The position numbers and the translations under genes were made by a program. A stretch of DNA of 64,000 nt from a virus. Numbering within the stretch: position 1 is the stretch's first letter; each line of letters opens with the position of its first letter. This document shows positions 856 through 16,451 of this stretch, one piece after another. The stretch spans positions 64,001 through 128,000 of the IMG/VR virus record IMGVR_UViG_3300042868_010004; one strand, given 5' to 3'. The notes beneath the pieces are model-generated. The model was not told the DNA's origin and did no database searches. It worked only from the letters and a program-made list of their open reading frames with translations.

Positions 856-1920
856 ATGTCATTCAATCGTAGAATTTCCCAAACTCAGGGTCTTTTCGTT
901 TCCCCCACTGGTGTCGCTGGTGTTACTGGTGTCGCTCAAATCTCCCGCGTTCAATCCGTGAATGATGGCTGGGAACTCAATCGTCAGAACGTCAATCAGT
1001 TCGGTCAACTTGCCGCTCTTTCCCGCGAGATTGTTGATGCCCCCACCGTCAATCTTTCCTTCTCTTATTATGTTACCGATGGTGCCGATGAAGAGCGTCT
1101 TGGTTTTGATATTGATGGCGTGAATGGCGCTCTTACTAATATTCTCAATAAGACCCAATCTGAGAAAAATTATTACATTCCCACCGTCCCCGAAGGCGAG
1201 GATCTTGCTGGTGAAGCTGTCGCGAGCATTGTTGATACCCGCGCTATCGGCAACGGTTTCGTATCTTCCTATTCTGTCGAAGGCTCTGTTGGTGGTTTCC
1301 TCACTGCGAATGTCTCTGTTGAAGCCTCTAATGCGGCCTATCACCTTGGCGGCTCTGGCAACCCCAATCCCGCGATTGATCCCCTTGATGGCGACGCCCT
1401 TTCCGGCACTTATACCCTTCCCGTTGGTGTGACTGGTGATGCAGGTCAGCCCATCGTTCTGAAACAAGGCGATCTCAGCCTAAATTTCGGTTCTATTGAT
1501 ACTATCGGTGCGACACTGACCGGTCTTGGTGCCGCCCACATTCAGTCATTCAATCTCAACATCCCGATGGGCCGCGAGCAGCTTCAGCGCCTTGGCAACC
1601 GTTATGCTTATGACCGTCCGCTGACCTTCCCAATTGATGTCACTCTGTCTGTCTCTGCCTTCGTCAATCAGTTGAATACCGGTTCCCTCGCCGAACTGTA
1701 TTGCGGTGACAACAAACATAATATTTCAATCGTTGCTAACAACTCCTGTATTGGTGGCGGGACCGCCGAGATGGTTTACACTCTGAAGGGTGCGACTCTG
1801 GATGCCAAATCCTTCACTTCCTCCATTGGCCCGGCTCAGACTGTCGATCTGACATTTACGGCCTCGGTTGGTGGTCCGAATGATGCAATTAATAACATTC
1901 TGTTCTCTGGCTCCGCCTAA
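856..1920 (+). CDS. Major tail tube protein
   Basis: 354 aa, G/S/T/V-rich beta-type sequence (RVQSVN...NRQNVNQFGQLA...PTVNLSFSYY). Own terminator; sits upstream of chaperones and tape measure. Confidence 0.75.
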   Translation: MSFNRRISQTQGLFVSPTGVAGVTGVAQISRVQSVNDGWELNRQNVNQFGQLAALSREIVDAPTVNLSFSYYVTDGADEERLGFDIDGVNGALTNILNKTQSEKNYYIPTVPEGEDLAGEAVASIVDTRAIGNGFVSSYSVEGSVGGFLTANVSVEASNAAYHLGGSGNPNPAIDPLDGDALSGTYTLPVGVTGDAGQPIVLKQGDLSLNFGSIDTIGATLTGLGAAHIQSFNLNIPMGREQLQRLGNRYAYDRPLTFPIDVTLSVSAFVNQLNTGSLAELYCGDNKHNISIVANNSCIGGGTAEMVYTLKGATLDAKSFTSSIGPAQTVDLTFTASVGGPNDAINNILFSGSA

Positions 1921-1943
1921 TAAGGAAAATAAAATTCATAATT

Positions 1944-1978
1944 AACCCATTCAGGTTTTTCTGAGTGGGTTTTTTATT
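1944..1978 (+). terminator. Rho-independent terminator
   Basis: AACCCATTCAG / CTGAGTGGGTT stem followed by a T tract, right after the tube gene. Confidence 0.85.
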
Positions 1979-2011
1979 GACTAAAAAGGAGGAAATTGTC
2001 ATAATCTTTAT

Positions 2012-2266
2012 ATGTCTAATGAATCCAAGCAGTCTATCATTCGTTTTTCCGCCGATGCCGCTAAAGATTATATCTGTCTGACTCTAGCGGATGGCCGGGT
2101 ATTTGAAGGTCGGAAGGCCATGAGGGACGTTCAGGTATCTTGGAAGCGGCACTTTGATTCCTATATGGGGTGGATTTCCGTAGAGGATAAAGTGTGGTTT
2201 GATGAAGGCCGGGCAGAACGACTTTACAACGAGCGGATGATTGCCAAGGGTGTCTTTACTTTTTGA
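2012..2266 (+). CDS. Hypothetical protein
   Basis: 84-aa ORF with ATG, preceded by a sigma70-like TTGACT-N17-CATAAT from 1977. Confidence 0.7.
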   Translation: MSNESKQSIIRFSADAAKDYICLTLADGRVFEGRKAMRDVQVSWKRHFDSYMGWISVEDKVWFDEGRAERLYNERMIAKGVFTF

Positions 2267-2443
2267 AACTTTGCTCTTGACTAATCCTTAAAGATTTTAA
2301 ATACTATCTTTGTTAGGCGCTTGGAGCCTAATTGTTCTTTGTCCGTAAAGTTGTTAGTAGAAAACGCTCAGAACTTTACCGCTAATAACGGTCATTTGAA
2401 AGCAACAAGCGCCCCAAAGGTCCAATCCCGATGGGGCTATTTT

Positions 2444-2713
2444 ATGAATCTTAATCGCTTCTCCATTCTAAACAGACTCAATCAGGAACAGATAAAGGAA
2501 TTATCCGAATCTTTCGGGTTTTCCTACTCTGAATTTCGTGAGGCCACAACCGGAAGGTATTTTAATGAAAAAATTTGCGATAAGATATGCAAGATGCTAG
2601 GCTATCGTCAGTGGTATCCGAAGTATTGGCCGAAGAATATGCCATATAACGGTTTAATGAATAAGGAAATGGGTAAAAAAATTCAAAAAAGAAAAGAAAA
2701 AGCAAAAAAGTAA
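2444..2713 (+). CDS. Small basic protein, possible HTH (Ner/Cro-like)
   Basis: ATG at 2444 preferred over TTG 2321. Helical LSESFGFSYSEFREATTG...KICKMLG pattern and Lys-rich tail; HTH call is tentative. Confidence 0.5.
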   Translation: MNLNRFSILNRLNQEQIKELSESFGFSYSEFREATTGRYFNEKICDKICKMLGYRQWYPKYWPKNMPYNGLMNKEMGKKIQKRKEKAKK

Positions 2714-2739
2714 TTCTAGAATATCGTTCTTTCGTGTAA

Positions 2740-3480
2740 AATATTGATAAGGTCCGATAAAAGCGTGAAAAAACGCTACAATTGCGCCAGCCTCTAACGG
2801 GATTTCCCACAATGCAGTTTGTGCCCGGACCAGCGCACTTTTGGTAAAACGGTTTACCGATGGGAGTAAGCAGCCTACTTAATTAAAGGGCGGACGTAAA
2901 AATCCGCGCAGGACCGAAGCAAATGTGGGCGAGACCGGTAGAGATTCAATCTCGCCGCCTTTTTCAGTGGCCCTTTGGGGTAATAGTCTCGCTTTTCGAA
3001 AGAAAGATTGGGCTGATGGGCGTAGTCCTAATTCACCACCCCGCTAGGGTGGATTGTGGACTTTTGGGACAGTAAAACAAAAGAGGTTCGTCGTTTGTGC
3101 TAACATGAATTAAAAAAAATGTATTTGTTGGCGAAAAAACCTGTTTTTGAGACAATCCGGCAAAGCCGGACAATCACCAAACGGGTAACTTCCAACAGTG
3201 GCAACTTTTTGAGTTAGCCCAATGAAGACCCAGAGCAAAACAAAACTTTTTCCGAGCAAAAAGATTTTCTTTTGATTTTCGCAAAGCCTCAAATTTCAAT
3301 CACCGCAAAAGTCTTTTCCAAAACCCGGCGAAACGAAAACGGCAAGCTCTGTCTAACGTTTAATCTTACCGAATTCGGTATCTTTAACGATCAATAAGAA
3401 AACGATTGTCGTTAAGAACGAATCAAAATCATTTGATAGTTTCTGCCGACCTATCGGTGTGTTTGACTATCATATTTCAA
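2740..3480 (+). ncRNA. Candidate large structured ncRNA or cruciform-rich control region
   Basis: No credible ORF, more than ten short and long-range helices, GTGTAA motif at 2734 just upstream. Confidence 0.5.
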
Positions 3481-3493
3481 CGATTGTATTTAG

Positions 3494-3543
3494 CCCCACA
3501 CCCCCCTACCCCCCCTCGCCCGTTTTGGCCCGCGCCGCCCGCC
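3494..3543 (-). other. G-tract cluster (G-quadruplex-capable; contains GGGTAGGG)
   Basis: Plus-strand C runs at 3494-97, 3501-06, 3509-15, 3519-21, 3529-31, 3538-40. Confidence 0.6.
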
Positions 3544-3554
3544 GAAATTCGCTC

Positions 3555-3583
3555 TTGACTTTTTTGCGAAAATCTTGAACAAT
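3555..3583 (+). promoter_or_regulatory. Sigma70-like promoter reading into the cassette array
   Basis: TTGACT-N17-AACAAT followed by ATG at 3593. Confidence 0.45.
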
Positions 3584-3592
3584 ACCCAAATC

Positions 3593-3847
3593 ATGACAAC
3601 CAATCCAAATTCTAATTCAGATCTAACGTCAAAGATGAGCGAGACGGATGATTGGCACTGGACGTGCGTAAGCACGGACTGTGACAAGCATACGGCTTCG
3701 CTCCATCGCTTTGTTAGGCTTCTTTTTTTTAATTTTTCTGATAAAACGGAAAAAATTAGCGAGGACCGTTCCGTTTCAATTCAGCTATCTGAGCAAGAAT
3801 ACCATCAAAGATTGGATGCACTGTCTCGCCTTCCTCCTGAACTTTAA
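3593..3847 (+). CDS. Possible ORF translated through attC1 (...LHRFVRLL...)
   Basis: ATG just after a sigma70-like promoter; overlaps the minus-strand gene by 92 nt. Confidence 0.3.
   Translation: MTTNPNSNSDLTSKMSETDDWHWTCVSTDCDKHTASLHRFVRLLFFNFSDKTEKISEDRSVSIQLSEQEYHQRLDALSRLPPEL
3621..3719 (-). repeat. attC site 1 (99 bp)
   Basis: Plus strand ATCTAAC...GATGAGCGA...TCGCTCCATC...GTTAGGC: R boxes, L boxes with one extra base, central CGTGC/GCACG hairpin. Confidence 0.8.
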
Positions 3848-4046
3848 TGGAAAACACAACGGTAAGAACCGAACCTTTCTTCGGCTGAATATTCTTTTCT
3901 TTTAATGTCTGCTCTATGGCAAGAATCGCACCATCAATTGAAAGATCATGTGGGGCGACGACTCTCCAAACCCCCTCGGTTACTGGGTCGATTAGCTCAA
4001 CCACATTTGGAGCCTTCTTTGTGAACTGAAACTTTAAGTTACTCAT
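3756..4046 (-). CDS. Cassette hypothetical protein (paralog A)
   Basis: 96 aa from MSNLKFQF; stop lies 36 nt before attC1. Confidence 0.65.
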   Translation of the reverse strand: MSNLKFQFTKKAPNVVELIDPVTEGVWRVVAPHDLSIDGAILAIEQTLKEKNIQPKKGSVLTVVFSIKVQEEGETVHPIFDGILAQIAELKRNGPR

Positions 4047-4061
4047 TTTTCTGATTTTTCT

Positions 4062-4337
4062 ATGATTACTAATACAAACAAAGTAAATTCCGACCAACAA
4101 CCCGACTACTCCGATAACCTAGTTGATACCGGAGTTAGAATGTGCCGGGACGACGAAAATAAATCCCTCACCGTATCCGTGGATGAATCCACTTTCACTA
4201 TTCCCTTTTCCTTTCTTGAATCTGTCGTAACAGGCTTAATTCTTCAGGGCTGGGCAGGCCGTGTGCTGCCACCTGATTATCTGGATCAACTTTTAATATC
4301 ACTACCGGCGGGAGGTAAGGATCTATTCCGTCCCTGA
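4062..4337 (+). CDS. Possible hypothetical protein, convergent with 4198-4485
   Basis: 91-aa ATG ORF with protein-like composition; 140-nt 3' overlap with the minus gene. Confidence 0.35.
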   Translation: MITNTNKVNSDQQPDYSDNLVDTGVRMCRDDENKSLTVSVDESTFTIPFSFLESVVTGLILQGWAGRVLPPDYLDQLLISLPAGGKDLFRP

Positions 4338-4485
4338 TGCGCTTGCTTCTGAAATCGACTACCGCTTTCTTAGCGGACTCAAAAGATAGTTCATGATCAG
4401 AGAATACCCAATATGTGATTTTTAGTCCGGGGTCACGGACACCGATCATGTGTTTTGGTGGAACCTCTTTGATGAAGTCGCTCAT
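4198..4485 (-). CDS. Cassette hypothetical protein (paralog B)
   Basis: 95 aa; shares a DP..W.V...H(D/E)LS...A..A pattern with 3756-4046. Confidence 0.65.
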   Translation of the reverse strand: MSDFIKEVPPKHMIGVRDPGLKITYWVFSDHELSFESAKKAVVDFRSKRIRDGIDPYLPPVVILKVDPDNQVAAHGLPSPEELSLLRQIQERKRE

Positions 4486-4562
4486 GGTAATAATTTTTTA
4501 ATTTATGAATAACGCTAACGAAAAACAAATCGGCGCGGAAGCGCCTTCTGATGGCTCGGTGT

Positions 4563-4660
4563 GCCTAACGCCCCAGCCTACCCATGACACTGATTGGCAC
4601 GAATCGTGCGCAGCACGAGGCGTGACAAGCAGGGGCATTGGGTGCGGCGCTTCGTTAGGC
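4563..4660 (-). repeat. attC site 2 (98 bp)
   Basis: GCCTAAC...GCCTACCCA...TGGGTGCGGC...GTTAGGC. Internal TGATTGGCAC, CGTGCG.AGCACG and GTGACAAGC are shared with attC1. Confidence 0.8.
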
Positions 4661-4706
4661 TCTTTTTTGGCTTCCGGATTCGTTTATCAAGTGCTGCACT
4701 GCCTTT

Positions 4707-5138
4707 TCAGACCTTTTTACTATTTCCGTCTTGTTCGGTGGTTTGTAAGTCTGAATCCGACCATTCATCATTTTCTCCTTTTGTGTCAGGCGTCGGCAAT
4801 ATGTCGGGGTAACTCTCAATCGGCCTTGGCGTGTATAAATAATCCGAATTCTCCGGGCAAGATAGCCTTTTATTCAAATTATACGTTACCGTTGCCATAT
4901 CCAAAGAACGAAAAAATGGATGCCAAGGCTTGGGGGCCTCTGCCATCAATCTCCCACCAAACTCCCACACAAGACAAACTGTGCCCGCAATCCCAGCATT
5001 TGCCGCGCAAATCTGTATAAAAATCTTGGTTTCAAGCATATCTTTCGCGGTGGCATTTTGTGCCCACCGTCCATTCAGAGGAACTATAATCATTTGCTGA
5101 CCACGAACATTCAAATGCGCTATATTGTAATTCTTCAT
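4707..5138 (-). CDS. Cassette hypothetical protein
   Basis: 143 aa with a (N/D)IAHL..GQQMIIVPL...GLAGTV..VW..GG...APxPWHPFF-type pattern recalled from uncharacterised bacterial proteins; ends 46 nt before attC2. Confidence 0.7.
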   Translation of the reverse strand: MKNYNIAHLNVRGQQMIIVPLNGRWAQNATAKDMLETKIFIQICAANAGIAGTVCLVWEFGGRLMAEAPKPWHPFFRSLDMATVTYNLNKRLSCPENSDYLYTPRPIESYPDILPTPDTKGENDEWSDSDLQTTEQDGNSKKV

Positions 5139-5205
5139 ATTGTAAGATAGATGAATAAAATTCAGTAAATTAGCAGGATTGCGTCCGAAACCAATAAAAC
5201 TCTGG

Positions 5206-6630
5206 CTATAATCTATCTAGATCAGCTAGAATCTCTCTTGGTGCCGCGCCATTCTCGGGTCCGACAATTCCGTTCTCCTCCAATAAATCCATGATCTGCG
5301 CCGCTCGATTATATCCAATCCTGAGGCGGCGCTGAAGAGTCGAGGTTGATGCCCGCTGAGTAGCCTTAAGAATATTCAGCGCCTTGTTGTATAATAAAAC
5401 ATCATCCAGATCTTCTCCTTCATCATCCACTTCGTCCAAATCATCTTCCTCGGAAGAGTCATCGAACTGTATAGCTCTATTTATTAAATCAGATTTGCTC
5501 TCGGTTTCTGAGCGGACGAGAACCCCCAGAACCATCGCAAGCAAATCATCTACATCGTGAATCTTCGAAACTTGGGAAGAAACCACAGCTTCGTCATCAA
5601 AAAGTCGCGCACTTAGCCGGGAATGAATCCCTTTCGGATGAAGTAGAAAAACATTCGCGGAGGAAGCCAATGCTTGGGCTGATTTCGTGAAAATTCCGGT
5701 GCTAATAACTGCGGCAAAATCAGCCTTCTCAAACTCTCTTCCCGCAATGATTTCTTGAACGGCTGAGTTCCCGACACTGTTAGCGTATCGTTTGCACTGA
5801 ACCACAAGTTTAACTCTCGGCGTCGTCGCAATAACATCAATTCCTTGATCCCCGCTCCCCGATGTGGTTCGTGTAGTCCAACCCGAGCGAGAAAGTTCGT
5901 TAGCGCATTCTCTCTCGAAACTGATGGGATCAAGCTCGGCCCATTCAAACTCCGCGCTTTCTGCCTTACCCCAGCATGACGAAGCAAAGTCAATAATGCG
6001 AAATACTCTATTGTATGTTGATTCTACACTTTTTACTGATCGCAGAGAATCAAATTCCTTACTGCTTCCACCTACTAAAAAATGAAGGATGAAATAATTA
6101 ATCTCTGCGTCCCATTCCTCTCGAATCTGTCTCCCATAATGATCAACGCGCAAAAGCTGGGATCTTCTTAGGCTCAGTGTGGGCAAATGATGAACCAACG
6201 GGGGCCTGATTAAATCAATGATTTTTAGTAACTCGATTTCGGTTCGCTCTTTTTCGGCTTTAGCTCTTTCAAGCAGTTCAATCTTTCTTTCCTTTTCTCT
6301 GCTCAATCTCAAAGACTCAAATTCGATTTTCTTCGCCTCTCGCCTGATAGTATCCAGAGACAATCCATCAAGGAAATGATTCAATTGCTCCGCCGTGAAT
6401 TTAAATTTTGTGAGATCTGCCAGCTCTCGGTTAGCTTCCTCAACAAAATACTCTAACGTTACACCGGGAAGGTCTCGGAATGCTTTTAACGAATCCCGCC
6501 ATACCATCTCTTGCTCCTTGGTGATTACTGTGACGACCGGGGCGGGCTTCTCACTCTTCTTGGTCTGACACTTATGACACGTTTGGGCGTCATCCCAGTT
6601 CTGAACGTTGCAGCATGGACAGTTCCACAT
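5206..6630 (-). CDS. RanBP2-type zinc finger / Mrr-like restriction endonuclease / FtsK gamma-domain fusion
   Basis: WNCPCCNVQN..TCHKC; FERECA..GSGDQGIDV..VQCKRY..VGNSAVQEI (Mrr_cat PD-(D/E)xK); ASTSTLQRRLRIGYNRAAQIMDLLEENGIVGP..PREIL (FtsK gamma wHTH). Confidence 0.85.
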   Translation of the reverse strand: MWNCPCCNVQNWDDAQTCHKCQTKKSEKPAPVVTVITKEQEMVWRDSLKAFRDLPGVTLEYFVEEANRELADLTKFKFTAEQLNHFLDGLSLDTIRREAKKIEFESLRLSREKERKIELLERAKAEKERTEIELLKIIDLIRPPLVHHLPTLSLRRSQLLRVDHYGRQIREEWDAEINYFILHFLVGGSSKEFDSLRSVKSVESTYNRVFRIIDFASSCWGKAESAEFEWAELDPISFERECANELSRSGWTTRTTSGSGDQGIDVIATTPRVKLVVQCKRYANSVGNSAVQEIIAGREFEKADFAAVISTGIFTKSAQALASSANVFLLHPKGIHSRLSARLFDDEAVVSSQVSKIHDVDDLLAMVLGVLVRSETESKSDLINRAIQFDDSSEEDDLDEVDDEGEDLDDVLLYNKALNILKATQRASTSTLQRRLRIGYNRAAQIMDLLEENGIVGPENGAAPREILADLDRL

Positions 6631-6706
6631 GGTGTTGAGCTAGGCAAAATGCCAATTTTTCGTAAAGCGAAAATCTATTTTTCTTTGGCTGCGGTGATGT
6701 GAGCGA

Positions 6707-6900
6707 GGCGAACGGTAGAATTAAAAAACCTTTGGCTGCGCACTTTTGCGCGGCAGCGCAATCTGGAATTAGATAGCTGGGCTTCGCCCGGCGTCGATTT
6801 CGTGTGTGGTGCCTAGCATGGGTCGTGCGTAGCACGACTGATGCGTAGCACGGTTGTTTGTGGTTTGTTGGCTCGAAAAACGACTTTGTGACCGTTCGGC
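6707..6900 (-). repeat. Long degenerate or composite attC-like site
   Basis: GGCGAACGGT ... ACCGTTCGGC termini, with GTCGTGC-GTA-GCACGAC hairpin at 6822-6838 partly duplicated at 6842-6852. Confidence 0.5.
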
Positions 6901-6980
6901 GCAAGCCGATTTAAGGGAACAATGTCGTGGATTGGGGGATCGTTTTTCTCTTTTTCCGAAGATCGGTGTAACCCAAGGAA

Positions 6981-7316
6981 ATGGATTCCAAGTATGAGCT
7001 AACTAGAGAAGATTTCGAAAATCATTTCGCTAGATTCTCAGAAGAGGAGCGAAAGCGTATAATTTCCTTTCTGGAAAAGACTCAATATACCCCACCACTT
7101 TCTTCATTCTTTCTTCGTCCGACATCAGCTCCTTGGTCCATTTTCCCTCTAGCTCTCTCGCGATTCTTTCACTATTTATTTTGGCATAAGCTGATTTCAA
7201 CCAATCTCCGAAATCGTCTAGACCAGTGGCAAAAGCGTAGATATGAGCGTATTCATGGTAAACCACCTGAAGGGGACAATTTCCTGAAGACTTTATTAGA
7301 GTGGGGCGCAGACTGA
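6981..7316 (+). CDS. Possible hypothetical protein antisense to the HExxH gene
   Basis: 111-aa ATG ORF with GTGTAA 9 nt upstream, the same spacing as at gene 18112. Confidence 0.45.
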   Translation: MDSKYELTREDFENHFARFSEEERKRIISFLEKTQYTPPLSSFFLRPTSAPWSIFPLALSRFFHYLFWHKLISTNLRNRLDQWQKRRYERIHGKPPEGDNFLKTLLEWGAD

Positions 7317-7485
7317 TTGTATCTCCGATTGCTCCCGCGATACTGACCGGCTGATTATCACTGGCGAAAACCTTAATACCTTCGGGATACTTTTGAAGTA
7401 TAGCCGATTGAACCTCGCCCGGCAACGTATCGAATAACTGGCGGGCCAGATTTTCTAGATTGGTGTATTCGTGAGGGGGCGGCAT
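7030..7485 (-). CDS. Cassette protein with HExxH zinc-metallopeptidase-like motif
   Basis: VVYHEYAHIY; begins 65 nt after minus-strand GTTAGGC at 7557-7551. Confidence 0.6.
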   Translation of the reverse strand: MPPPHEYTNLENLARQLFDTLPGEVQSAILQKYPEGIKVFASDNQPVSIAGAIGDTISLRPTLIKSSGNCPLQVVYHEYAHIYAFATGLDDFGDWLKSAYAKINSERIARELEGKWTKELMSDEERMKKVVGYIESFPERKLYAFAPLLRI

Positions 7486-7550
7486 GGTTTTTGGGGCGAG
7501 TGGCTGGCGCGGAGCATGCGAATAAGGAAATAGATTGGGTGGGTTGGTTT

Positions 7551-7577
7551 GCCTAACGCTCAAGGTGAGCGAGACGG
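7551..7577 (-). repeat. attC half-site (L'-R')
   Basis: GCCTAACGCTCAAGGTGAGCGAGACGG matches the attC1 arm ATCTAACGTCAAAGATGAGCGAGACGG. Confidence 0.7.
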
Positions 7578-7608
7578 GATAAGTCTTATTTTGTTTTTGT
7601 TTTGGTAT

Positions 7609-7716
7609 GCCTAACGCCCCCTATCAGCCATGCAGCCCCAATCTTTCGGTCCTATGAATAACTCCTCGCGAAAAATTGTAACGGCTATATGCATTGGCTG
7701 CATAGGTTTGTTAGGC
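7609..7716 (-). repeat. attC site 3 (108 bp)
   Basis: GCCTAAC GCC CCTATCAGCCA ... TGGCTGCATAGG TTT GTTAGGC, with the extra base on the same arm as attC1. Confidence 0.8.
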
Positions 7717-7854
7717 TCATTTTTTATTTTTCTTCTTTCTTTAGGACTACATCCAGTTCTAGCGGCTTTATTGGCGCTAGGGGGATCAGTAAGTGTGTCT
7801 GGCTTGACGTTTGTGGCGATTGGAATATGGGGGCCACCTGAATGGATGCTCTAG
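7630..7854 (+). CDS. Possible small membrane protein starting inside attC3
   Basis: 74 aa with two hydrophobic segments; ATG lies in the attC loop. Confidence 0.35.
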   Translation: MQPQSFGPMNNSSRKIVTAICIGCIGLLGSFFIFLLSLGLHPVLAALLALGGSVSVSGLTFVAIGIWGPPEWML

Positions 7855-7933
7855 GGAAAACGGTAAACCATGCCTGAATACTTCCAAAAGCCGTGGCAGA
7901 TAAGTAAATATAAAAAGTAATATGTTCGTCCAT
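7724..7933 (-). CDS. Cassette small protein with hydrophobic N-terminus
   Basis: 69-aa ATG ORF whose stop lies 7 nt before the attC3 R'' box. Confidence 0.5.
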   Translation of the reverse strand: MDEHITFYIYLSATAFGSIQAWFTVFPRASIQVAPIFQSPQTSSQTHLLIPLAPIKPLELDVVLKKEEK

Positions 7934-8066
7934 CTCTGTTCTCTCTGTATCTTTAACTGCATTGAAGCCATTCGCGCCAAAGTTCGCAATATGGCCTGCC
8001 CAGTTCCTCTGCCTTGGAAATTCAGTGATTCATCGTGTGTATCTATCAATAGATGTTCCGGCGTGT

Positions 8067-8088
8067 TCGCTCCAGCGCTTCGTTAGGT
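8067..8088 (-). repeat. attC half-site (R''-L'')
   Basis: TCGCTCCAGCGCTTCGTTAGGT matches the attC1 arm TCGCTCCATCGCTTTGTTAGGC. Confidence 0.7.
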
Positions 8089-8191
8089 TCCTGTAATTTC
8101 TCATTTTCTATTTTCCCGTGTAATCCCTTTTTAGGCAAAGGCAGGATTCAGAATTCAGTCAGTAATTGGTTTTTCGGCACACGGTAAAAAT

Positions 8192-8476
8192 ATGCAAGCA
8201 AAAGATTATCTAGGTCTACATACGACCAAAGAAGTAAAATACCTATACAAGCATTTCCTTGAGACTCTTGAGGAAATCCACCGGCAGCACGATTCCAGTT
8301 TGTTCAAACTGATGAACGGGCTACCAAAAGAGTATCAGTCTCAGGTCATTCAGGCCGCGTTTTTTGACGACGAGGGCTATCAGCACTTTCGTAAGCTCGT
8401 GCTCGACCACGGAAACGAATCCATCCGGGCGCTCCTTGATGAGATTGAGAAATATGAAATTGACTTCAAGCGATAG
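8192..8476 (+). CDS. Hypothetical late protein
   Basis: 94-aa helical ORF after GTGTAA at 8118. Confidence 0.75.
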   Translation: MQAKDYLGLHTTKEVKYLYKHFLETLEEIHRQHDSSLFKLMNGLPKEYQSQVIQAAFFDDEGYQHFRKLVLDHGNESIRALLDEIEKYEIDFKR

Positions 8477-8520
8477 GGCGGCTAAAATATAAACCACAAA
8501 TAATTTAAATTCCAACTAGC

Positions 8521-9300
8521 ATGTCCACTGATTTCATCAAAAACAAGAAACCCGAGTATTCCTTTACTTCCTACATAACAGGGAAAGTTACTAAAGAGGA
8601 GGTCCGACAGGAGAATGGCTCCGAAGTGATCGTCAAGAAAGAGGTCGAGGAGAAAATTCCCGTTTCAATCTATTTCTATAAGCCGACTCGGAGACAGCGC
8701 GAGGAAGCCGACTTGGTATATTCCAAAAAGATGTTCTCCCTGATGGAAGAGGGCATTATGACCAAGCAGCAGATTGCGAAAGTCTATAATAATGGTGGTG
8801 GCGACCTGAGTAAGCCGGAAGTCGATCTTTATGTTAAGCTCACGACTGAATTGTCCACCAAACTCCGCGATGCCGAATATCTCAATCGAAAAGACCCCTC
8901 GACTTGGACCGAAGAGGAGAAAATCAAGAATGTCTCCGTCATTACCGACATCTCTTTGATTAAGCGCGAACTGATTGAATTTGAAACCCAGCGCGCCGCC
9001 ATCTTTGAGCATTGCGCCGACCAGAAAGCCTTCTACCATGTCTTATCTTGGTATGTCGTGAATCTGACTTTCAAGCAGATTGGTGATAAGATTGAACCGC
9101 TATTTGTCGGGAAGACCTTTGAGGAAAAGCTGGATAATTATGATGAACTGATTGAAAAGGATGATGAATTAATTTCAAATATCCGCCACAAACTCAATTC
9201 TCTGGTCGCTTACTGGTATTCCGCCGGTCCGAAAGAAAAGAAGGATTGGTTGCCGATTGAGGAAGAGCTGGGTATTACCCCCGAGGCAGAAAAATCTTAA
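8521..9300 (+). CDS. Tail assembly chaperone-like protein
   Basis: Charged helical 259 aa lying between tube and tape measure genes. Confidence 0.5.
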   Translation: MSTDFIKNKKPEYSFTSYITGKVTKEEVRQENGSEVIVKKEVEEKIPVSIYFYKPTRRQREEADLVYSKKMFSLMEEGIMTKQQIAKVYNNGGGDLSKPEVDLYVKLTTELSTKLRDAEYLNRKDPSTWTEEEKIKNVSVITDISLIKRELIEFETQRAAIFEHCADQKAFYHVLSWYVVNLTFKQIGDKIEPLFVGKTFEEKLDNYDELIEKDDELISNIRHKLNSLVAYWYSAGPKEKKDWLPIEEELGITPEAEKS

Positions 9301-9327
9301 TTAAATCACAGATTAAGCCGGTCTCCT

Positions 9328-10326
9328 ATGTCTAAATTTGACGACCGCGAGCTAAAACGCCTCTTTGTCGAAATTACCAAGGGTTATACTGAGGTTCGTC
9401 GCGGCAAAGAGGTTTTCTATATCAAGCACTTCAATCAGGAAGACCAGTTTGAAATTGATGATTTTTATTTTCAGAAGCTAGAAAGCCTGAAAGATTCCGG
9501 TATTCCGACCGAGGAGCAAGTGCTTGAACAGTTGGCAAAAAAGAAAATCTGGACAACTCAGGATGAGGTTTGGTTAAGTCAGAAGGAATTAGAGATTAAC
9601 CAGTTGATTAAAACACGGGATAAACAAAGCTTGCCTTCCCAGATTGAGTATTTTGATGGGTTAATTCAGGCTGAACGGACGGAGTTATTCCGAAAGAAAT
9701 CGCAGCGGGCGGGCCTGATTGGGGATACGCGGGAGAGATTCGCCAATCAATCCGTGAACTCCTATTTCATCCTACAATCATTCTACAAAGATAAGGAATG
9801 CCGAAATTTATTAGTTTCCCCGGAAGAGTTTGAGGATATGGAGGATGACGCTCTTCTTAGTTTCAGTTTGCTCTATAGTAAGTCCATGCAGATGTATAAC
9901 AATGAGTCGATCAAAAAGGTCGCGGTCTGCTCATTCTTTCAAAATTTATTCTATCTGGCCGAAAATATTCATCAATTTTGGGGGAAGCCAATAAAGGATC
10001 TGACTATCTATCAGACTGAATTGTCGTCTTATGGCCGTTATTTCAAATCGGTCTTGCAGAACTCCGAACATGAGATACCGGAGGAGATTCGCTCAGACCC
10101 GGACAAGCTACTTGGATTCGCCAAAATGGACAATAAGATGAAGGAGAATTTGAGTAAGGGCAGCGGACAGAATGCATCGTTTACCGGCACAAAGGAAGAT
10201 GCGAAGAAGCTTGGTATTAAATTAACTAATGAATATAGTAAACATGCAAAGCGATTGGGCCGGAATCTGACTCGGGATGATATGTTTATGATTGATAAGG
10301 GCGAAGGACATAAGATTAAGGCTTGA
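9328..10326 (+). CDS. Tail assembly chaperone-like protein 2
   Basis: 332 aa, immediately before the tape measure gene. Confidence 0.5.
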   Translation: MSKFDDRELKRLFVEITKGYTEVRRGKEVFYIKHFNQEDQFEIDDFYFQKLESLKDSGIPTEEQVLEQLAKKKIWTTQDEVWLSQKELEINQLIKTRDKQSLPSQIEYFDGLIQAERTELFRKKSQRAGLIGDTRERFANQSVNSYFILQSFYKDKECRNLLVSPEEFEDMEDDALLSFSLLYSKSMQMYNNESIKKVAVCSFFQNLFYLAENIHQFWGKPIKDLTIYQTELSSYGRYFKSVLQNSEHEIPEEIRSDPDKLLGFAKMDNKMKENLSKGSGQNASFTGTKEDAKKLGIKLTNEYSKHAKRLGRNLTRDDMFMIDKGEGHKIKA

Positions 10327-10394
10327 GGTATTCTATTGGACCTATTTTGGGTGTAATCCTTTATATAGGTTTAAGGATTTAAGATTTTATCATC

Positions 10395-13300
10395 ATGGCT
10401 GACGCACCCTTTGTTTTCTCCTCAAGACTCAGCACCCGTTCTTGGGAGCGGGATGTTAACGCTGGTTTCCGTCGTGCGCAGGCCGGTATCAATCGGCAGA
10501 AGATTGGTTTTAATGTTGATCCCTCTGGTCTGAATAAACTTTCGGCCCCTCTTGGTAAACTCACGACTCAGGCCGGTGAGTTCAATCGCTCCCTTGAAGC
10601 GTCCAATGCCCGCGTTTTGGCCTTCGGTGCCTCCGTTGGTATTATCACGGCGCTTGGCCGTGGTTTTTCAGCCCTTGTTCGTGACGCCGTTGAAGTTCAG
10701 GCCGTCTTGGCTGATATTAATACGATCCTGAAGCAGAGCGCGGATGGTTTGTCCCAGTATGAGGCGCAGATTTTTAGTGTCGCTAGAAATACGGGTCGTT
10801 CTTTTAAAGAAACTGCTACCGCTGCCTTGGAGCTTTCCCGTCAAGGTCTATCGGCAGAGGAATCACTTGAACGACTGAATAATGCACTCATCCTGACTCG
10901 CCTTAGCGGTTTGTCTGCCGAGGATTCCGTTCAAAGCGTCACGGCGGCTATCAACTCTTTCTCGAAAGAAGTCTTAGACTCCTCCATTGTTGTTAATAAA
11001 TTCTCGACTGTCGCCGCGAAATTCTTCGTTTCAGAGAAGGACTTGGCCGAAGCCGTCCGTCGCGTGGGCTCCTCTGCTCAGGATGCCAATGTCAGCTTTG
11101 ATGAACTGATTGCCATCGTAACTGCCGCTCAACAGACTACGGCCCGTGGTGGCGCGGTTATCGGTAATTCATTTAAGACAATTTTCACCCGTCTGCAACG
11201 TTCAAGCACCCTGACGGAGTTGGAAAATTTAGGTGTCGCCGTAAGAGATTTAGAGGGAAATGTTCTCCCCGCTGTTGAAATTCTTAAATCTCTCGCCAGT
11301 CAGATTGACGGATTGAGTCAGCCCCAGCAGGCTTATATTTCCGAATTGACCGCTGGTGTCTTCCAAATCAATCAGTTGAAGGCTATTCTCGGTGACTTGT
11401 CTGGTGAATATTCTTTTTATAAAGCGGCCTTGGAGTCTTCGGTTGGCGCGACAAATGAGGCCATCAAACGTAATGAAGAGCTGAATAAAACTTACGCCGC
11501 TCAATTCAATGCAATTAAGCAGAGTATCACCCAGATTTCTTCTGTTTTGGGTCGCGACCTACTCGGTCCCCTTACTCAATCCTTAACCGCATTTTTTGAG
11601 TCCGCTCAGGATACTTTCGGAATTAAAGAGGGCGAAAAAGTCGGTAGTGAATTTGCTTCTGGTATTGTAAAAGGTATTGGCGGTGTAATCGGCGGGCCGG
11701 GCTTATTGGTTGCCAGCGCGGTCATCCTTGGCCTCTTTGTAAAACTCGGAAAATTTGCCCTTGGCGCGCTTAAAACCGTCTCTGACTTGGCTGGCGTTAT
11801 CGGAAAGAGAAAAGAAATTCAGGCGGAGGTTAATCGTTTGGTCGCCGAGGAACCCAAACTTCTCAGTCAGATTCTAACCGGGGCAAAATCCGTAGAGGAG
11901 GTTGAGAAGAGAATTCTTGCTTTAATCAGGCAGAAGATTATAGCGCAGGAACAATTTAATGCTGTTACTTTGGGCGTTGCGACTAGGGCCACCCCGAGGG
12001 TAGGCCAAGGCACCAATCTGGCTCAGGCGGGCTTAGGTTTCAGCGGAGGGGCTTTTACTAGTCGTCCAGTTGGTGGAACGGGCCGCGTTCCTAATTTTGC
12101 CGATCCAATTAAGGAAGCTTTTGATCGTGAGCGCGCAGCGGGCATTCCAGCCAATCAGATTTATGTGGATTCCGACCCACGAGTAAAGGGACCGGGTAAT
12201 CCTCTTGGTCTTCTAGTGGCGAATCGTCGGGACGAGCCATTAGGCGGTTTTCAAGGTGTCAATCGGGCAATTGCCTTGGGTCAAGATCCGAAGAAATCAG
12301 GAATGAGCGGATCGAATATTCCGAATTTTGCCGCGTTTGATAATCTTCAAATGGGTGGAAATTTTGCCCCATTTAACATCACGTCGGAACAGTCCAGACA
12401 ATTCCGCTCTCTTTTTGGTAAACTAACCAACAGCGTTTCCAAACTGAATCGTCAGCTATCTTTTGAATTAGGCGAGTCTATTCAAAAGTATGGTGAGAGC
12501 ATTAACCTCACAAAAGAATCACAGGAAAAGGTTCGCTCGGTTCTTAATCAGCAATTTAACCGGCTGGTCAGACTAGAAAATCAACCAAGAATTATTCGTT
12601 CTGGTGGTGGGCGTAGAGCTACACTGGAGGAATTTGAAGCCACGAGACAGCAGTTTGCGGGAGTATCTGGACTCGCAGGTCCGAATTTTACCGAAGGTTC
12701 AATCGGGGTGGGTAGAAATAGGGAGATTACAAAAGCTTTTGCTTCTAGATCTATTCAGGAACAGCGCGGGATTAATCTTCAGGCGGCTTCCGAAAGAGTC
12801 CAAAGCGGAAGAAATCTAACATCTTCCCAGTTAAAAGCCATTAGCACCGAATCTTTCATTCAGGCTTTACAAAGTCCTTCTCTCGCCGGTCTTTCCAAAA
12901 GAGAAATCGCAGTAAATCCCGAGGCTAGGAGAGAGTTGCGCCGCTTGGCAAAGGCATATCGTGATGAATTCGGCAAGGCTTTGGATTCGGCTCAAATTAG
13001 TTCCGCTGCTGACCGTGCTTTTACATTTTCAAATTTCAGTCTCGGTTCTGTCTTCGGAACGGAAAAGGGTGATGAGAAAAGATTCCGCCGTGAATTGGGT
13101 GTCAAGCCGGGGCAAAAACTTTCTTCTGAACAGCAAAATACATTCTTCAACCGTAGAATGCAGACTCAGCAACAAAGAAGCTCGAATGTAACAAATCGAG
13201 CTTTCCTTGGTTCAATTGCAGCGTCTTTTATCGCTCCCCAGTTTGCCGATAGTAGTCCGATCACAAGTGGGATTTTTGAGGGCGCGGGGGCGGGGTTGGC

Positions 13301-16300
13301 GGCGGGCGGCTTGGCAAGTATGGGGAATCCTTATATTGCTGCCGGTGCAGGTCTTGCAGGCGCGGGCATAGGCGCGACTAAAGCTATCAGTGGTGGAGAT
13401 GAAAGAGCCTTTAATAAAGCTGCCTCTGATTTCCAAAATCTAACTGCGAAAATTAACGAGAATAGAAACGGCGTTCAGCAATATATTGAAGCGCAGGCGA
13501 AACTTAATGATACGTTGAAAGAAGGTAAGGCTTCAACAGAGGATATTGAAAAACTAAATCAGAATCTCACCAACGTCTTCCGGACGATTGAAGATCAGGG
13601 TCTTCGTCGTGGCATTATTGCCGCCGCCGGAAATCTTGAACAGCTACAAAAAGTTTTTGCCGAATTTGAAAAGAATTCAATCTTCAAGGAAGCTGCTGAG
13701 TCAATCACCTTGCTTTCCACTTCCGCCAAGAATAATAAAACAGGGAGAAACGCCTTCGGTTTTGGTGGAGACTTCCTTACTCGCGATCTCTCTAAGATTG
13801 GAGAAAATCTTCTTACGGCAAATTCAGGCGACGAAAAGACTCGATCTGGCTTCCTGAGTCTGATCCAAGAGATTGATGAATTAGCTGCGTCAGGAAAATC
13901 TGAACAGGCGGCGGAAAAGCTAGCTAGAATTAATCCGGCCCTAGAAGGAATTGATAACTCATTTGATATTCGCACGATTACCGGCGCGGCTCTTGCATTC
14001 AACGATGTTTCTAAAGCCCTGAAATCCACACAGGAGGTCAACACGGAATACCTTGCCCAATTAGGAAAATACCAAAGGGAGTTCCTGAAACTATCTTCCG
14101 AATTAATCGAACAGCAACGCATCATCCAGCTTGAAGGCGAGTTACAAACCCGTCTGACCTTGGCTCGCGTGGGCGCAAATTTGGAGGATTCAACTTTTGG
14201 CACGACTGAGCGCTCGGCAATCGGGGCGCGATCCTCTTTCAGACAAGCCGAACTGGTGGGTCGTTTTAATGAACAGAGGTCCGAACTTGATTCCGGCCTG
14301 CGTGCCAATTTGCAGTCTTTCTTATCCGAGGTTCCGCAAACACTCTCCCGGCAATTTGCCAACCGCATCCAAAGTGGAAGTCCAAGACAGGTCTTGGATG
14401 AGATTCTTCAGGCGACAACCGGCTCGACAAGTGAACTTGGGAAGAAGCCGCAAGAGCAGATTGACAAATTAGAGCAGTTGCAAAAGACTTTTGACGGTCA
14501 ACTAACCGAACTCAACAAATCGACTCGCGAATCCCTTGAATTGGAGAGAATTTCAGCGGAGGCGGAAAAGCGTCGCGTTGACCGGCAGAATCGGATTGGT
14601 TTGCTTGGCGGAGCGAGTTTTAATCCGTTAGATTTTTCAGCAATACGGGCCGGTCGTGGGGCCGCAACTACCAGATTCCGTGGGGAGCAAATTCTTCGCG
14701 GGAATACCGCCGGACTGGATACCAATGCTATCCGCAATACAACGCAGTCTGCCCGTATCCTTGAAACGCAAGGCATTCTCTCTCGCTCTCAACTCTTACC
14801 CGGCCTTCCAACGAGTGACCGCGATATTGATACTGCCAGCAAGGCGTTTGAACAAAATCTTACCGACAATCTCAATCAGCTTGTCGCATCCTCTCTTCGC
14901 GGCCTCCTTTCGGATGAATCTCTTGGGCAGACTGGTTTGGTTTCGGGTCAGGATTTACGCGGGGGTCTGACTTCTCTACTCAGTCGTTCGGCGCGCGGTG
15001 GTCAAACCGACTTTTCTGGTGCCGCTAATTTTGTTCGCGCTCGCCTGCCCGATTTTGGTTCCGGCGGAGAACTTAAACGTCAATTGATTGAATTATTTGA
15101 GGAGGCGGCGAGAGATCAGGGGACATTGGGCGAGGCTGGGCGGGATCAAGCCAGAAGCCTCCTTCAGACGGATAAACAAAAAGAGGATTCCTTTATCCAG
15201 AGGCTTGTTTCGGGCTTCAAGGGTGAGGATATCGCTCGGAATACTTTTGATACGCAGGTCAGAATTGAAGAGCTAAAGAAAGTTTTTGAGGCTCAGGCGG
15301 CATTAACCGTAAAATCGGAAGCAGTATCCGCCAAACAAAGAGAACTGAATGAAATAAACGTTGCAAAAGCGGAAGCGCAGAGAGATATAGAGCGTCGCGT
15401 GGGCGGCAGCAGATTCGACTTTTCAAAAACTAGGGTTTTGACTGGCGGAAATACAATTCCGTTAGACGAACAACTAAAACTTGTCAGAGAAATTGTCTCT
15501 AAATTGGGACTTCCGGAATTTAAACCCGGTGATTCAACAACCCTGCCTGCTATCCGCAGCTTAACAAAAGGTATTGGTGAAAGTTCTACTTTGTCCGAGG
15601 CAAGGGATCGCATTTTGGGATCTCCCGAGTTGGAGCCAGCCGTTAGATTCATTTCCCAAGGGGCTAGAACCGACGAGGAAAGAGTCGCGGCGGTAGATAA
15701 ATTCCTTTTAGAGTTTTCTACCGCTGATGAAACCGTAAAAAATGCAAATTCTAGTCTCAGTCAGTTTAATACGCAAATTGGGGCCGTCACCACAGAGCTA
15801 AACAAATTGCGCGCAAGATTGGATATTGATACAAAAACATTTCAGGGGCAATTCGCCTCCCAACCACCTAATATTGTCAGTAATCGCCTATCTAACAGCG
15901 GCACCCTATCTGATACACAAAAAAGCGATTCCCGTAGGATTATTGGTGGATTTTCCGAAAATCTTCGAGGCGGAGCAAATGCGATTTCGGCTTTGCAATC
16001 TAATCGGGAGCAGCTTGGGAAGGTTAACGAAAGAATTCAAGGCGTGGTTCAGAGAACGGCTCAGTCTGGAACTCTTTCTCGTTCTGACGAGGCCCTTCTC
16101 GACGCTTTGCGACAGGATAGAAATGAATTGGCGGCAGTAATTAATGCACAGGAGGAATCTATAAAGAAAGGTGTTACCGAAATTGCAAATAAAACTGCCG
16201 AAGCAATGAAGGAGGCATTTGTTGACTTGCCGGACGCTCTGAATGCAACACTGACACAGAATTTGACTCTGGCTGGTCAGGTAATCCTCAGAGATGGAAA

Positions 16301-16451
16301 AGTAACAGCGGAAGAGGTTCAAGGCTTGAATGAGGCTTTCTTAAAATTCATTGAAGAGTATTACAGCAAAAAACTAAAAGAAAAAGCTGATGCTCAAACG
16401 AAAGAAAACGGCGGAATACCCACCCCTCCAACCCAGCGCCCAAAAGTCTAA
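10395..16451 (+). CDS. Tail tape measure protein (TP901-type core)
   Basis: 2018 aa; helical A/L/E-rich core (AELSRQGLSAEESL..NKFSTVAAKF..LAEAVRRVGSSA..GNSFKTIFTRL), Gly/Ala hydrophobic segments, repeated PNFA motifs. Confidence 0.92.
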   Translation: MADAPFVFSSRLSTRSWERDVNAGFRRAQAGINRQKIGFNVDPSGLNKLSAPLGKLTTQAGEFNRSLEASNARVLAFGASVGIITALGRGFSALVRDAVEVQAVLADINTILKQSADGLSQYEAQIFSVARNTGRSFKETATAALELSRQGLSAEESLERLNNALILTRLSGLSAEDSVQSVTAAINSFSKEVLDSSIVVNKFSTVAAKFFVSEKDLAEAVRRVGSSAQDANVSFDELIAIVTAAQQTTARGGAVIGNSFKTIFTRLQRSSTLTELENLGVAVRDLEGNVLPAVEILKSLASQIDGLSQPQQAYISELTAGVFQINQLKAILGDLSGEYSFYKAALESSVGATNEAIKRNEELNKTYAAQFNAIKQSITQISSVLGRDLLGPLTQSLTAFFESAQDTFGIKEGEKVGSEFASGIVKGIGGVIGGPGLLVASAVILGLFVKLGKFALGALKTVSDLAGVIGKRKEIQAEVNRLVAEEPKLLSQILTGAKSVEEVEKRILALIRQKIIAQEQFNAVTLGVATRATPRVGQGTNLAQAGLGFSGGAFTSRPVGGTGRVPNFADPIKEAFDRERAAGIPANQIYVDSDPRVKGPGNPLGLLVANRRDEPLGGFQGVNRAIALGQDPKKSGMSGSNIPNFAAFDNLQMGGNFAPFNITSEQSRQFRSLFGKLTNSVSKLNRQLSFELGESIQKYGESINLTKESQEKVRSVLNQQFNRLVRLENQPRIIRSGGGRRATLEEFEATRQQFAGVSGLAGPNFTEGSIGVGRNREITKAFASRSIQEQRGINLQAASERVQSGRNLTSSQLKAISTESFIQALQSPSLAGLSKREIAVNPEARRELRRLAKAYRDEFGKALDSAQISSAADRAFTFSNFSLGSVFGTEKGDEKRFRRELGVKPGQKLSSEQQNTFFNRRMQTQQQRSSNVTNRAFLGSIAASFIAPQFADSSPITSGIFEGAGAGLAAGGLASMGNPYIAAGAGLAGAGIGATKAISGGDERAFNKAASDFQNLTAKINENRNGVQQYIEAQAKLNDTLKEGKASTEDIEKLNQNLTNVFRTIEDQGLRRGIIAAAGNLEQLQKVFAEFEKNSIFKEAAESITLLSTSAKNNKTGRNAFGFGGDFLTRDLSKIGENLLTANSGDEKTRSGFLSLIQEIDELAASGKSEQAAEKLARINPALEGIDNSFDIRTITGAALAFNDVSKALKSTQEVNTEYLAQLGKYQREFLKLSSELIEQQRIIQLEGELQTRLTLARVGANLEDSTFGTTERSAIGARSSFRQAELVGRFNEQRSELDSGLRANLQSFLSEVPQTLSRQFANRIQSGSPRQVLDEILQATTGSTSELGKKPQEQIDKLEQLQKTFDGQLTELNKSTRESLELERISAEAEKRRVDRQNRIGLLGGASFNPLDFSAIRAGRGAATTRFRGEQILRGNTAGLDTNAIRNTTQSARILETQGILSRSQLLPGLPTSDRDIDTASKAFEQNLTDNLNQLVASSLRGLLSDESLGQTGLVSGQDLRGGLTSLLSRSARGGQTDFSGAANFVRARLPDFGSGGELKRQLIELFEEAARDQGTLGEAGRDQARSLLQTDKQKEDSFIQRLVSGFKGEDIARNTFDTQVRIEELKKVFEAQAALTVKSEAVSAKQRELNEINVAKAEAQRDIERRVGGSRFDFSKTRVLTGGNTIPLDEQLKLVREIVSKLGLPEFKPGDSTTLPAIRSLTKGIGESSTLSEARDRILGSPELEPAVRFISQGARTDEERVAAVDKFLLEFSTADETVKNANSSLSQFNTQIGAVTTELNKLRARLDIDTKTFQGQFASQPPNIVSNRLSNSGTLSDTQKSDSRRIIGGFSENLRGGANAISALQSNREQLGKVNERIQGVVQRTAQSGTLSRSDEALLDALRQDRNELAAVINAQEESIKKGVTEIANKTAEAMKEAFVDLPDALNATLTQNLTLAGQVILRDGKVTAEEVQGLNEAFLKFIEEYYSKKLKEKADAQTKENGGIPTPPTQRPKV

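Follow-up and report, generated by a model that had tools for sequence, protein, structure and literature searches.

A probable integron cassette array without an integrase in the tail operon of a large environmental phage

Integron cassettes have been described in phages before. In a survey of 10,705 phage genomes, Qi et al. (2023; PMC9892861) reported three complete integrons, one In0 and 17 clusters of attC sites lacking an integron integrase (CALINs), some of them in virulent phages, and five of the six phage attC sites tested recombined with attI1 under IntI1. For bacterial CALINs and single attC sites lacking an integron integrase (SALINs), the proposed origins are integrase loss and IntI insertion at GWT sites (PMC4889954; 10.1101/2022.09.11.507474), and Loot et al. 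(2023; 10.1101/2022.09.11.507474) described the insertion of cassettes by IntI at GWT sites outside integrons. The present analysis concerns IMG/VR virus record IMGVR_UViG_3300042868_010004, a single contig of 191,122 bp with direct terminal repeats that is rated complete and represents an uncultured, probably virulent lake phage. The window analysed comprises bases 64001–128000 of that record (64,000 nucleotides), and all coordinates are those of the window. At 3621–8088, on the minus strand, lies a locus that we read, with a probability of about 0.85, as a CALIN, i.e. part of an integron cassette array that no integrase accompanies, partly decayed and situated in the phage tail operon. Under the criteria of Qi et al. 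(two or more sites scoring 20 bits or higher, each with a neighbouring site no more than 3 kb away; PMC9892861) it would count as a CALIN. A first-pass annotation of this DNA had put it forward as an undescribed system, a claim that had to be given up in view of the phage CALINs already published (Qi et al., 2023; PMC9892861); the array is a further example of a phage-borne CALIN, a rare type of cargo known since 2023.

The array contains three genuine, structurally intact attC sites, attC1 to attC3 (Table 1), of 99, 98 and 108 nt, which is inside the attC range of about 57–141 nt, and their central stems fold. On the minus strand, R'' and R' read GCCTAAC...GTTAGAT in attC1 and GCCTAAC...GTTAGGC in attC2 and attC3; they fit the consensus RYYYAAC...GTTRRRY and the boxes pair. 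The arms have one layout in all three sites: R'' (7 nt) is followed by a 5-nt spacer, 3 bp, a bulge, 6 bp and a second bulge, and the other arm consists of 6 pairs, 3 pairs, a 6-nt spacer and R'; reference sites are laid out alike. Extrahelical bases, which in attC sites determine the choice of strand, occur on the R''-L'' arm only, at top-strand positions 16 and 23, in the three sites as in 30 reference sites; the first of them is G when read on the top strand and C on the bottom one, as it also is in several reference sites. The L boxes form nine pairs, to which 0–2 further pairs are added, with one non-standard pair in site 2. Sites 1 and 2 have the sequence of the central hairpin in common (70% over 57 nt), and the stem of attC2 differs from that of attC1 by an A-T to C-G double change. 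The minus-strand open reading frames (ORFs) stop 36, 46 and 7 nt upstream of sites 1, 2 and 3, so that the layout from gene to attC on one strand is canonical and not reversed. These results bear out most of what the first-pass annotation had noticed, namely palindromic sites with R boxes at exactly these coordinates, L boxes with extra bases on one arm, internal sequence common to sites 1 and 2, and genes ending 7–46 nt before the complete sites.

Folded as single-stranded DNA (ssDNA), the plus strands of sites 1, 2 and 3 gave −26, −32.4 and −19.9 kcal/mol, with z values of −5.4, −4.8 and −3.5 against shuffled sequences. The bottom (plus) strand is the more stable one in sites 1 and 2, as in reference attC sites, and in site 3 the two strands are about equal. 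A strict R-box/L-box pattern search recovered sites 2 and 3 and one probable chance match elsewhere in the genome (0.4 expected in shuffles); site 1 was missed by it, exceeding the R-box mismatch limit. The R' box of attC1 is the only one among the sites with a divergent outer part. A crossover with foreign DNA at G|TT would leave such an end, which is compatible with, and no proof of, IntI insertion at a GWT site.

The sites were also recognized by a covariance model of attC, R1, derived from bacterial sites only. The search for intI was seeded with IntI1 of plasmid R100 aligned with relatives of 74–84% identity; 80 intI loci were fetched from bacterial genomes (mostly Betaproteobacteria, many of them freshwater metagenome-assembled genomes), and R1 was trained on 30 attC sites from 20 of these loci, all of them taken from the array side of intI. 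In its alignment 95.4% of the paired cells are standard pairs, 11 of the 18 pairs changed on both sides, and covariation is 0.43 as against 0.125 in shuffles. A held-out test on 46 intI loci (611 kb) gave 88 matches of 22.8–60.7 bits, all on the array side and strand, the single exception being an acidobacterial locus of the inverted-integrase type. The model was checked on about 1.6 Mb of non-integron DNA overall. In about 530 kb of unrelated metagenome loci and four phage relatives it exceeded 20 bits at three places only, all of which adjoin an Mrr-nuclease gene on the same strand and are real cassettes; about 960 kb from 57 related phages yielded no match. With filters off, R1 found exactly three significant matches in the window, all on the minus strand, with rough E-values of 5e-7 to 7e-6, and the next-best match reached 9.8 bits; the remaining 128.7 kb of the phage genome gave no match up to E 10. 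The minus-strand scores of sites 2 and 3 exceed those of the plus strand by about 19–21 bits, and site 1 has no plus-strand match. Failure against attC covariance models had been named beforehand as a reason for abandoning the proposal; with R1 as surrogate the sites passed at 31–35.5 bits. A weak match at 3351–3467 (6 bits) was rejected for want of an attC-like fold.

An array of this kind is a CALIN only if no integrase accompanies it. In six-frame searches of the complete 191-kb genome, run at permissive thresholds at which control genomes gave matches, we found no IntI (TIGR02249), Phage_integrase (PF00589) or SAM-like N-terminal domain (PF13495), and no Resolvase or Y1_Tnp; thus no tyrosine, serine or HUH recombinase was detected. 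Nothing recombinase-like adjoins the array, and a complete integron, with intI next to the array, is not what is seen here. What is seen are three co-oriented minus-strand sites, each preceded at a short distance by a gene of that strand and separated by gaps of 843 and 2948 bp (at least two attC within 4 kb), in a genome without intI. The earlier remark that no integrase was in view consequently extends from the window to the whole genome. A recombinase of unrecognized type, encoded by the phage and serving these sites, appears very unlikely: most phage genes are without family assignment, which leaves room for one, but the sites fit the IntI-type model in detail and the six-frame search and the neighborhood of the array revealed no member of the three families.

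The locus shares with the phage CALINs of Qi et al. (PMC9892861) the presence of at least two co-oriented attC sites within 3–4 kb, the absence of an integrase, a large and probably virulent phage, cargo mostly of unknown function with restriction/modification-type genes present, and intervals with several ORFs. There is also an R-box-like inverted repeat here (2312–2332), comparable with the inverted GTTRRRY terminator beside the TJE1 array; it is a short hairpin of GTTAGGC, 7 nt and GCCTAAT, i.e. R-box sequence in inverted order, at the start of a 130-aa ORF. It differs from those CALINs in that the phage is an uncultured lake phage, the array lies in the tail operon with the tube gene on one side and the next tail gene on the other, two sites are present as single arms, T-runs make the sites terminator-like on the opposite strand, and it is known from sequence alone. 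Like bacterial CALINs and SALINs (PMC4889954; 10.1101/2022.09.11.507474) it consists of attC-bounded cassettes away from intI and prone to decay; unlike them it resides in a virus, and the upstream end of the array is without a clean G|TT signature. With the chromosomal integrons of Beta- and Gammaproteobacteria (loci L086–L165) it has in common the R boxes GCCTAAC/GTTAGGC, the spacer, the bulges, a similar L-box consensus, arms with up to 36 of 50 positions identical, and an ORF upstream of the site on the same strand. In contrast to these integrons the phage array has no intI and apparently neither attI nor a Pc promoter, and the GC content of its sites is 0.49–0.63 as against roughly 0.6–0.75 in most arrays. 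The similarity of the arms to real bacterial sites is generic. The central motifs of sites 1 and 2 were absent from all fetched bacterial arrays, exact-pattern scans of IMG/VR found neither the central motif of sites 1/2 nor the ends of sites 2/3, attC2 gave only insignificant partial matches in PLSDB plasmids (E 0.09 or worse), no Rfam family matched the sites, and the array was absent from the INPHARED phage collection.

An accessory island of 6.27 kb separates the tail tube gene from the next conserved tail gene, and the CALIN makes up its right-hand module. The distance between these two genes here amounts to 6271 bp (1921–8191) and contains two plus-strand small genes, a gene-free stretch and the minus-strand array. 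Searching IMG/VR with the tube protein returned 57 relatives of 25–40% identity (nearly all 33–40%). Thirteen of them are colinear, with the tube gene followed after 107–165 bp by a homologue of the gene at 8192 and then by homologues of those at 8521 and 9328 and of the tape measure gene; six more are colinear with the 8192 homologue undetected and the 8521 homologue as the next gene found. In a few others the tape measure gene directly follows the tube gene or no downstream gene was recovered, and in 26 the tape-measure operon is inverted and lies upstream of the tube gene. This variation marks the junction behind the tube gene as a point of rearrangement. Relative L200 carries a different gene of 423 aa at the same position, hence the spot accepts insertions. 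None of the 57 relatives carries any island gene or an R1 match, and the array is simply absent from them.

The placement between tail tube and chaperone genes given by the first-pass annotation held in part. The tail-module location stands, with the tape measure gene identified by PHROG and the tube-like gene suggested by its neighbours; the chaperone label for 8192–10326 is purely positional. The 354-aa protein encoded at 856 looks like a tail tube, which we treat as a lead only: its Atlas neighbours carry Phage_tube_2 or Phi812_tail_tube (score 0.96–0.98, TM 0.73–0.85), the AlphaFold2 model was unusable (predicted local distance difference test score, 29), and sequence searches of Pfam, PHROGs and PDB gave no match. 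The genes flanking the island likewise returned nothing in Pfam and PDB sequence searches.

The array can be divided into three cassette units: (i) a small ORF with attC3, (ii) a 3-kb unit of three genes with the relics of lost sites and attC2, and (iii) a two-gene unit with attC1. The only defence-like cargo is the 474-aa protein of the middle unit, which combines an Mrr-type nuclease domain (Pfam Mrr_cat, E 2.6e-22) with an FtsK gamma domain (FtsK_gamma, E 4.8e-25). Its nuclease domain matches ZorD and PDC-S02 in PADLOC and resembles nucleases of defence proteins; homologues reach 62% identity, and FtsK of Burkholderiales-type bacteria matches the gamma domain with up to 78% identity. The gamma domain reads polarity motifs of the host chromosome, and the fusion is an unusual nuclease of interest by itself; as a testable idea, the protein may be a nuclease aimed at these motifs. 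No relative of the gene was found in IMG/VR, and a search of metagenomes with the aligned nuclease family returned general Mrr homologues only, including two true cassettes used as controls. The latter, in metagenome loci L023 and L067, provide a precedent for Mrr-type nucleases as cargo; their sites at L023:793–880 and 1825–1912 and at L067:47–116 score 39–54 bits with R1 on the strand of the gene. On a 330-kb contig (L008; locus 36% GC), two attC-like sites of about 128 nt (7274–7402 and 10128–10255; R1 16–18 bits) have internal sequence in common, each directly after an ORF and near an Mrr homologue, and may represent another divergent cassette array.

The other cargo genes are orphans, as is usual in integron cassettes, and had no family in four libraries of hidden Markov models (HMMs). 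The island and cassette proteins compared, which were all but the nuclease, had no relative across some 1.5 Mb of fetched loci, those with intI among them, and no paralogue within the phage. The homologues of the 95-aa protein, found among 1.84 billion cluster representatives, show 84% identity at best and 32–55% otherwise, and all those looked up are on short metagenome contigs. The 143-aa protein resembles small bacterial hypothetical proteins in its predicted structure (TM 0.63–0.65), again a lead only. The small ORFs of the attC3 cassette had no homologues in the fetched loci and no families in the HMM libraries. On the plus strand, a candidate 74-aa ORF with two hydrophobic helices (7630–7854) starts within attC3 and overlaps these small ORFs.

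Signs of decay are found on either side of attC3 and further into the array. The half-sites reported at 7551 and 8067 were confirmed as 84% and 79% matches to opposite arms of attC1. The one at 7551–7577 has no partner arm nearby and is not detected by R1; the one at 8066–8088, which forms the head of the array, has no partner arm within 150 nt. Each is about 27 nt long, and together they enclose 488 bp comprising a small ORF, the complete attC3 and 31 nt. Because the arms are not fully complementary (GCTG versus CACC, plus an A.C mismatch at the outer R pair), we favour two separate decayed sites over one split site. The degenerate site proposed at 6707–6900 did not withstand scrutiny as an attC: R1 gave 4 bits and its fold was no better than that of shuffles (z −0.2 to −1.8). 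It is at best a remnant.

A feature that sets the phage sites apart is an A-run of 8, 6 and 6 on the top strand, 2–3 nt before R'' of sites 1, 2 and 3. Runs of at least five A within 15 nt of R'' occur in 4% of 147 bacterial attC sites as against three of three here. Read on the plus strand, each site is a GC-closed hairpin followed within 2–3 nt by a T-run of 6–8 (3720–3731, 4661–4668 and 7717–7732) and so resembles a terminator for transcripts running the way of the tail operon. From this arrangement, the attC hairpins with their T-runs probably end plus-strand transcripts before these can extend, antisense, into the cassettes, and may thereby have an insulating role. A promoter-like motif, GCTCTTGACT, the longer form of TTGACT-N17, has five or six copies in the genome, on the plus strand only, and the copy at 3551–3583, 38 nt from attC1, points straight into that site and could yield a hairpin transcript of about 130 nt. 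Intrinsic terminators resemble the phage sites in the plus-strand hairpin with a T-run, and repeats of the repetitive extragenic palindrome (REP) or miniature inverted-repeat transposable element (MITE) type resemble them as imperfect palindromes of about 100 bp. The phage sites differ in having stems far longer than those of terminators, a position at the ends of genes on the opposite strand, three copies, and a strand-specific match to the attC model.

Several observations weigh against a CALIN of bacterial origin and should be set against the evidence above. R1 is a surrogate and not IntegronFinder's attc_4, and the phage sites rank in the lower third of real-site scores. No bacterial array of the same site subtype was found in these searches. 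The right edge of the array coincides with the outer end of the R'' box and not with the IntI cut point, a misfit with clean IntI insertion. The middle unit, with 3 kb and three genes, is atypical for a cassette. The composition of the cassette genes (GC 0.43–0.46; GC content at third codon positions, GC3, 0.41–0.47, versus a phage mean GC3 of 0.455 ± 0.073) is the phage's own, and a bacterial origin is not visible there. With respect to expression of the cargo, no phage-type promoter was found on the minus strand of the array, nor any minus-strand promoter-like site in the 100 nt upstream of its head (8089–8191).

The explanation we prefer is that the cassettes derive from the bacterial integron pool and entered the phage by one of two routes, insertion at a secondary site catalysed by IntI while the phage infected a host carrying an integron, or illegitimate recombination. 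Since the phage has no recombinase, excision or exchange would depend on IntI supplied by the host, with the folded plus (bottom) strand as substrate, and without it the array would decay, which would explain the two half-sites and the remnant. The array may still be active where a host supplies IntI. Given that the relatives lack the array, that two sites have lost an arm and that another survives at best as a remnant, a decaying relic and an active platform are about equally likely.

The alternative that survives best, to which we give somewhat less than even odds, departs from the preferred explanation solely in denying present IntI activity. It supposes a single capture by illegitimate recombination and no recombination now, with the hairpins kept as plus-strand terminators or insulators and the cargo consisting of ordinary morons. 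The visible decay, the lack of a recombinase, the wholly phage-like composition of the cassettes, the T-runs that are rare in bacterial attC, the promoter motif at 3551–3583 directed into attC1 and the array edge away from the IntI cut point would all follow readily; less easily accommodated are the three sites that retain all paired positions and both canonical bulges, though long imperfect palindromes are deletion-prone, and the recombination by IntI1 that Qi et al. (2023; PMC9892861) observed for phage attC sites of this kind. At the other extreme, the array might be a working exchange point at which SOS-induced IntI of the host excises and inserts cassettes at the phage attC sites, the phage drawing genes from the cassette library of the host and returning them to it, with the T-runs adapted as terminators that shield antisense cargo and the halved arms around a whole cassette recording a non-canonical route; we regard this as unlikely.

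Phage-native or MITE-like palindromic repeats of about 100 bp, resembling R boxes by chance, have very little to commend them. The terminal inverted repeats of about 27 nt, sequence conservation that runs a few bases past the boxes on both sides, and half-sites that could be read as the ends of a larger cargo-bearing element are in keeping with such repeats; yet the 191-kb genome has only three copies, all inside 4.1 kb, the flanks show no target-site duplications, no relative carries them, and R-box coincidence does not predict 31–35 bits from a bacterial-only attC model with strong strand preference and matching bulges. Equally hard to credit is an assembly chimera joining a bacterial integron fragment into the phage contig: attC repeats often break or mis-join metagenome assemblies, but here conserved tail genes flank the array on both sides in one contig with direct terminal repeats, cassette GC and GC3 equal the phage mean, the plus-strand-only promoter-like motif lies 38 nt from attC1, and the nuclease protein cluster is recorded on four contigs.

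Read as a CALIN, the locus offers a clean complete-genome case of integron cassettes carried by a large environmental phage without an integrase, and it lends support to a role of phages in moving cassettes among bacteria. Its location within a conserved structural operon supplies exact 'empty-site' comparators in the relatives, and the T-runs suggest how a phage tolerates, or exploits, such hairpins. The known picture of integrons is unchanged by this finding.

Table 1. Features in and around the cassette array (window coordinates).
Feature	Position	Strand	Basis or remark
Tail tube-like gene, left anchor	856–1920	+	354 aa; language-model and predicted-structure neighbours
Terminator hairpin 3' of tube-like gene	1944–1971		
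TTGACT-N17 promoter-like sites	1977, 2273–2305, 3551–3583, 8460–8488	+	
attC1, last site of array on top (minus) strand	3621–3719	−	R1 35.5 bits, E 5e-7 (rough); model positions 1–78, full length
96-aa cassette ORF, second gene of attC1 unit	3756–4046	−	No family in Pfam, PHROGs, NCBIfam, PADLOC
95-aa cassette ORF, rare conserved family	4198–4485	−	7 homologue clusters
attC2	4563–4660	−	R1 31.5 bits minus versus 12.5 plus
143-aa cassette ORF, stops 46 nt before attC2	4707–5138	−	Atlas structural neighbours
474-aa cassette ORF: N-terminal Cys-rich motif, Mrr-type nuclease domain, FtsK gamma (KOPS-reading; FtsK-orienting polar sequences) domain	5206–6630	−	Pfam
Possible central-hairpin remnant of attC1/2-type site, not attC	6806–6853		13-nt palindromic tip 6824–6836 common to sites 1 and 2
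151-aa cassette ORF, HEYAH (HExxH-like) motif, orphan	7030–7485	−	2 homologues among 5.8 billion clusters (99%, 57% identity)
Half-site, L'-R' arm only, attC1-like	7551–7577	−	84% identity to attC1 arm over 25 nt (7553–7577)
attC3	7609–7716	−	R1 31.0 bits minus versus 9.6 plus; all modelled pairs standard
Small-ORF region of attC3 cassette	7724–8049	−	Overlapping candidates 7724–7933 (69 aa) and 7786–8049 (87 aa)
Half-site, R''-L'' arm only, canonical bulge spacing; right array edge	8066–8088	−	79% identity to other attC1 arm over 34 nt (8066–8099)
Right anchor: three conserved genes (8192, 8521, 9328), then tape measure	8192–16451	+	Homologues directly after tube gene in relatives
Tape measure gene	10395–16451	+	2018 aa; PHROG E 3e-40

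One further feature of the island was observed to the left of the array. A C-rich tract (G-rich on the minus strand) at 3490–3545, odd for a genome of 43% GC, sits between the gene-free stretch and the promoter-like site that adjoins attC1.

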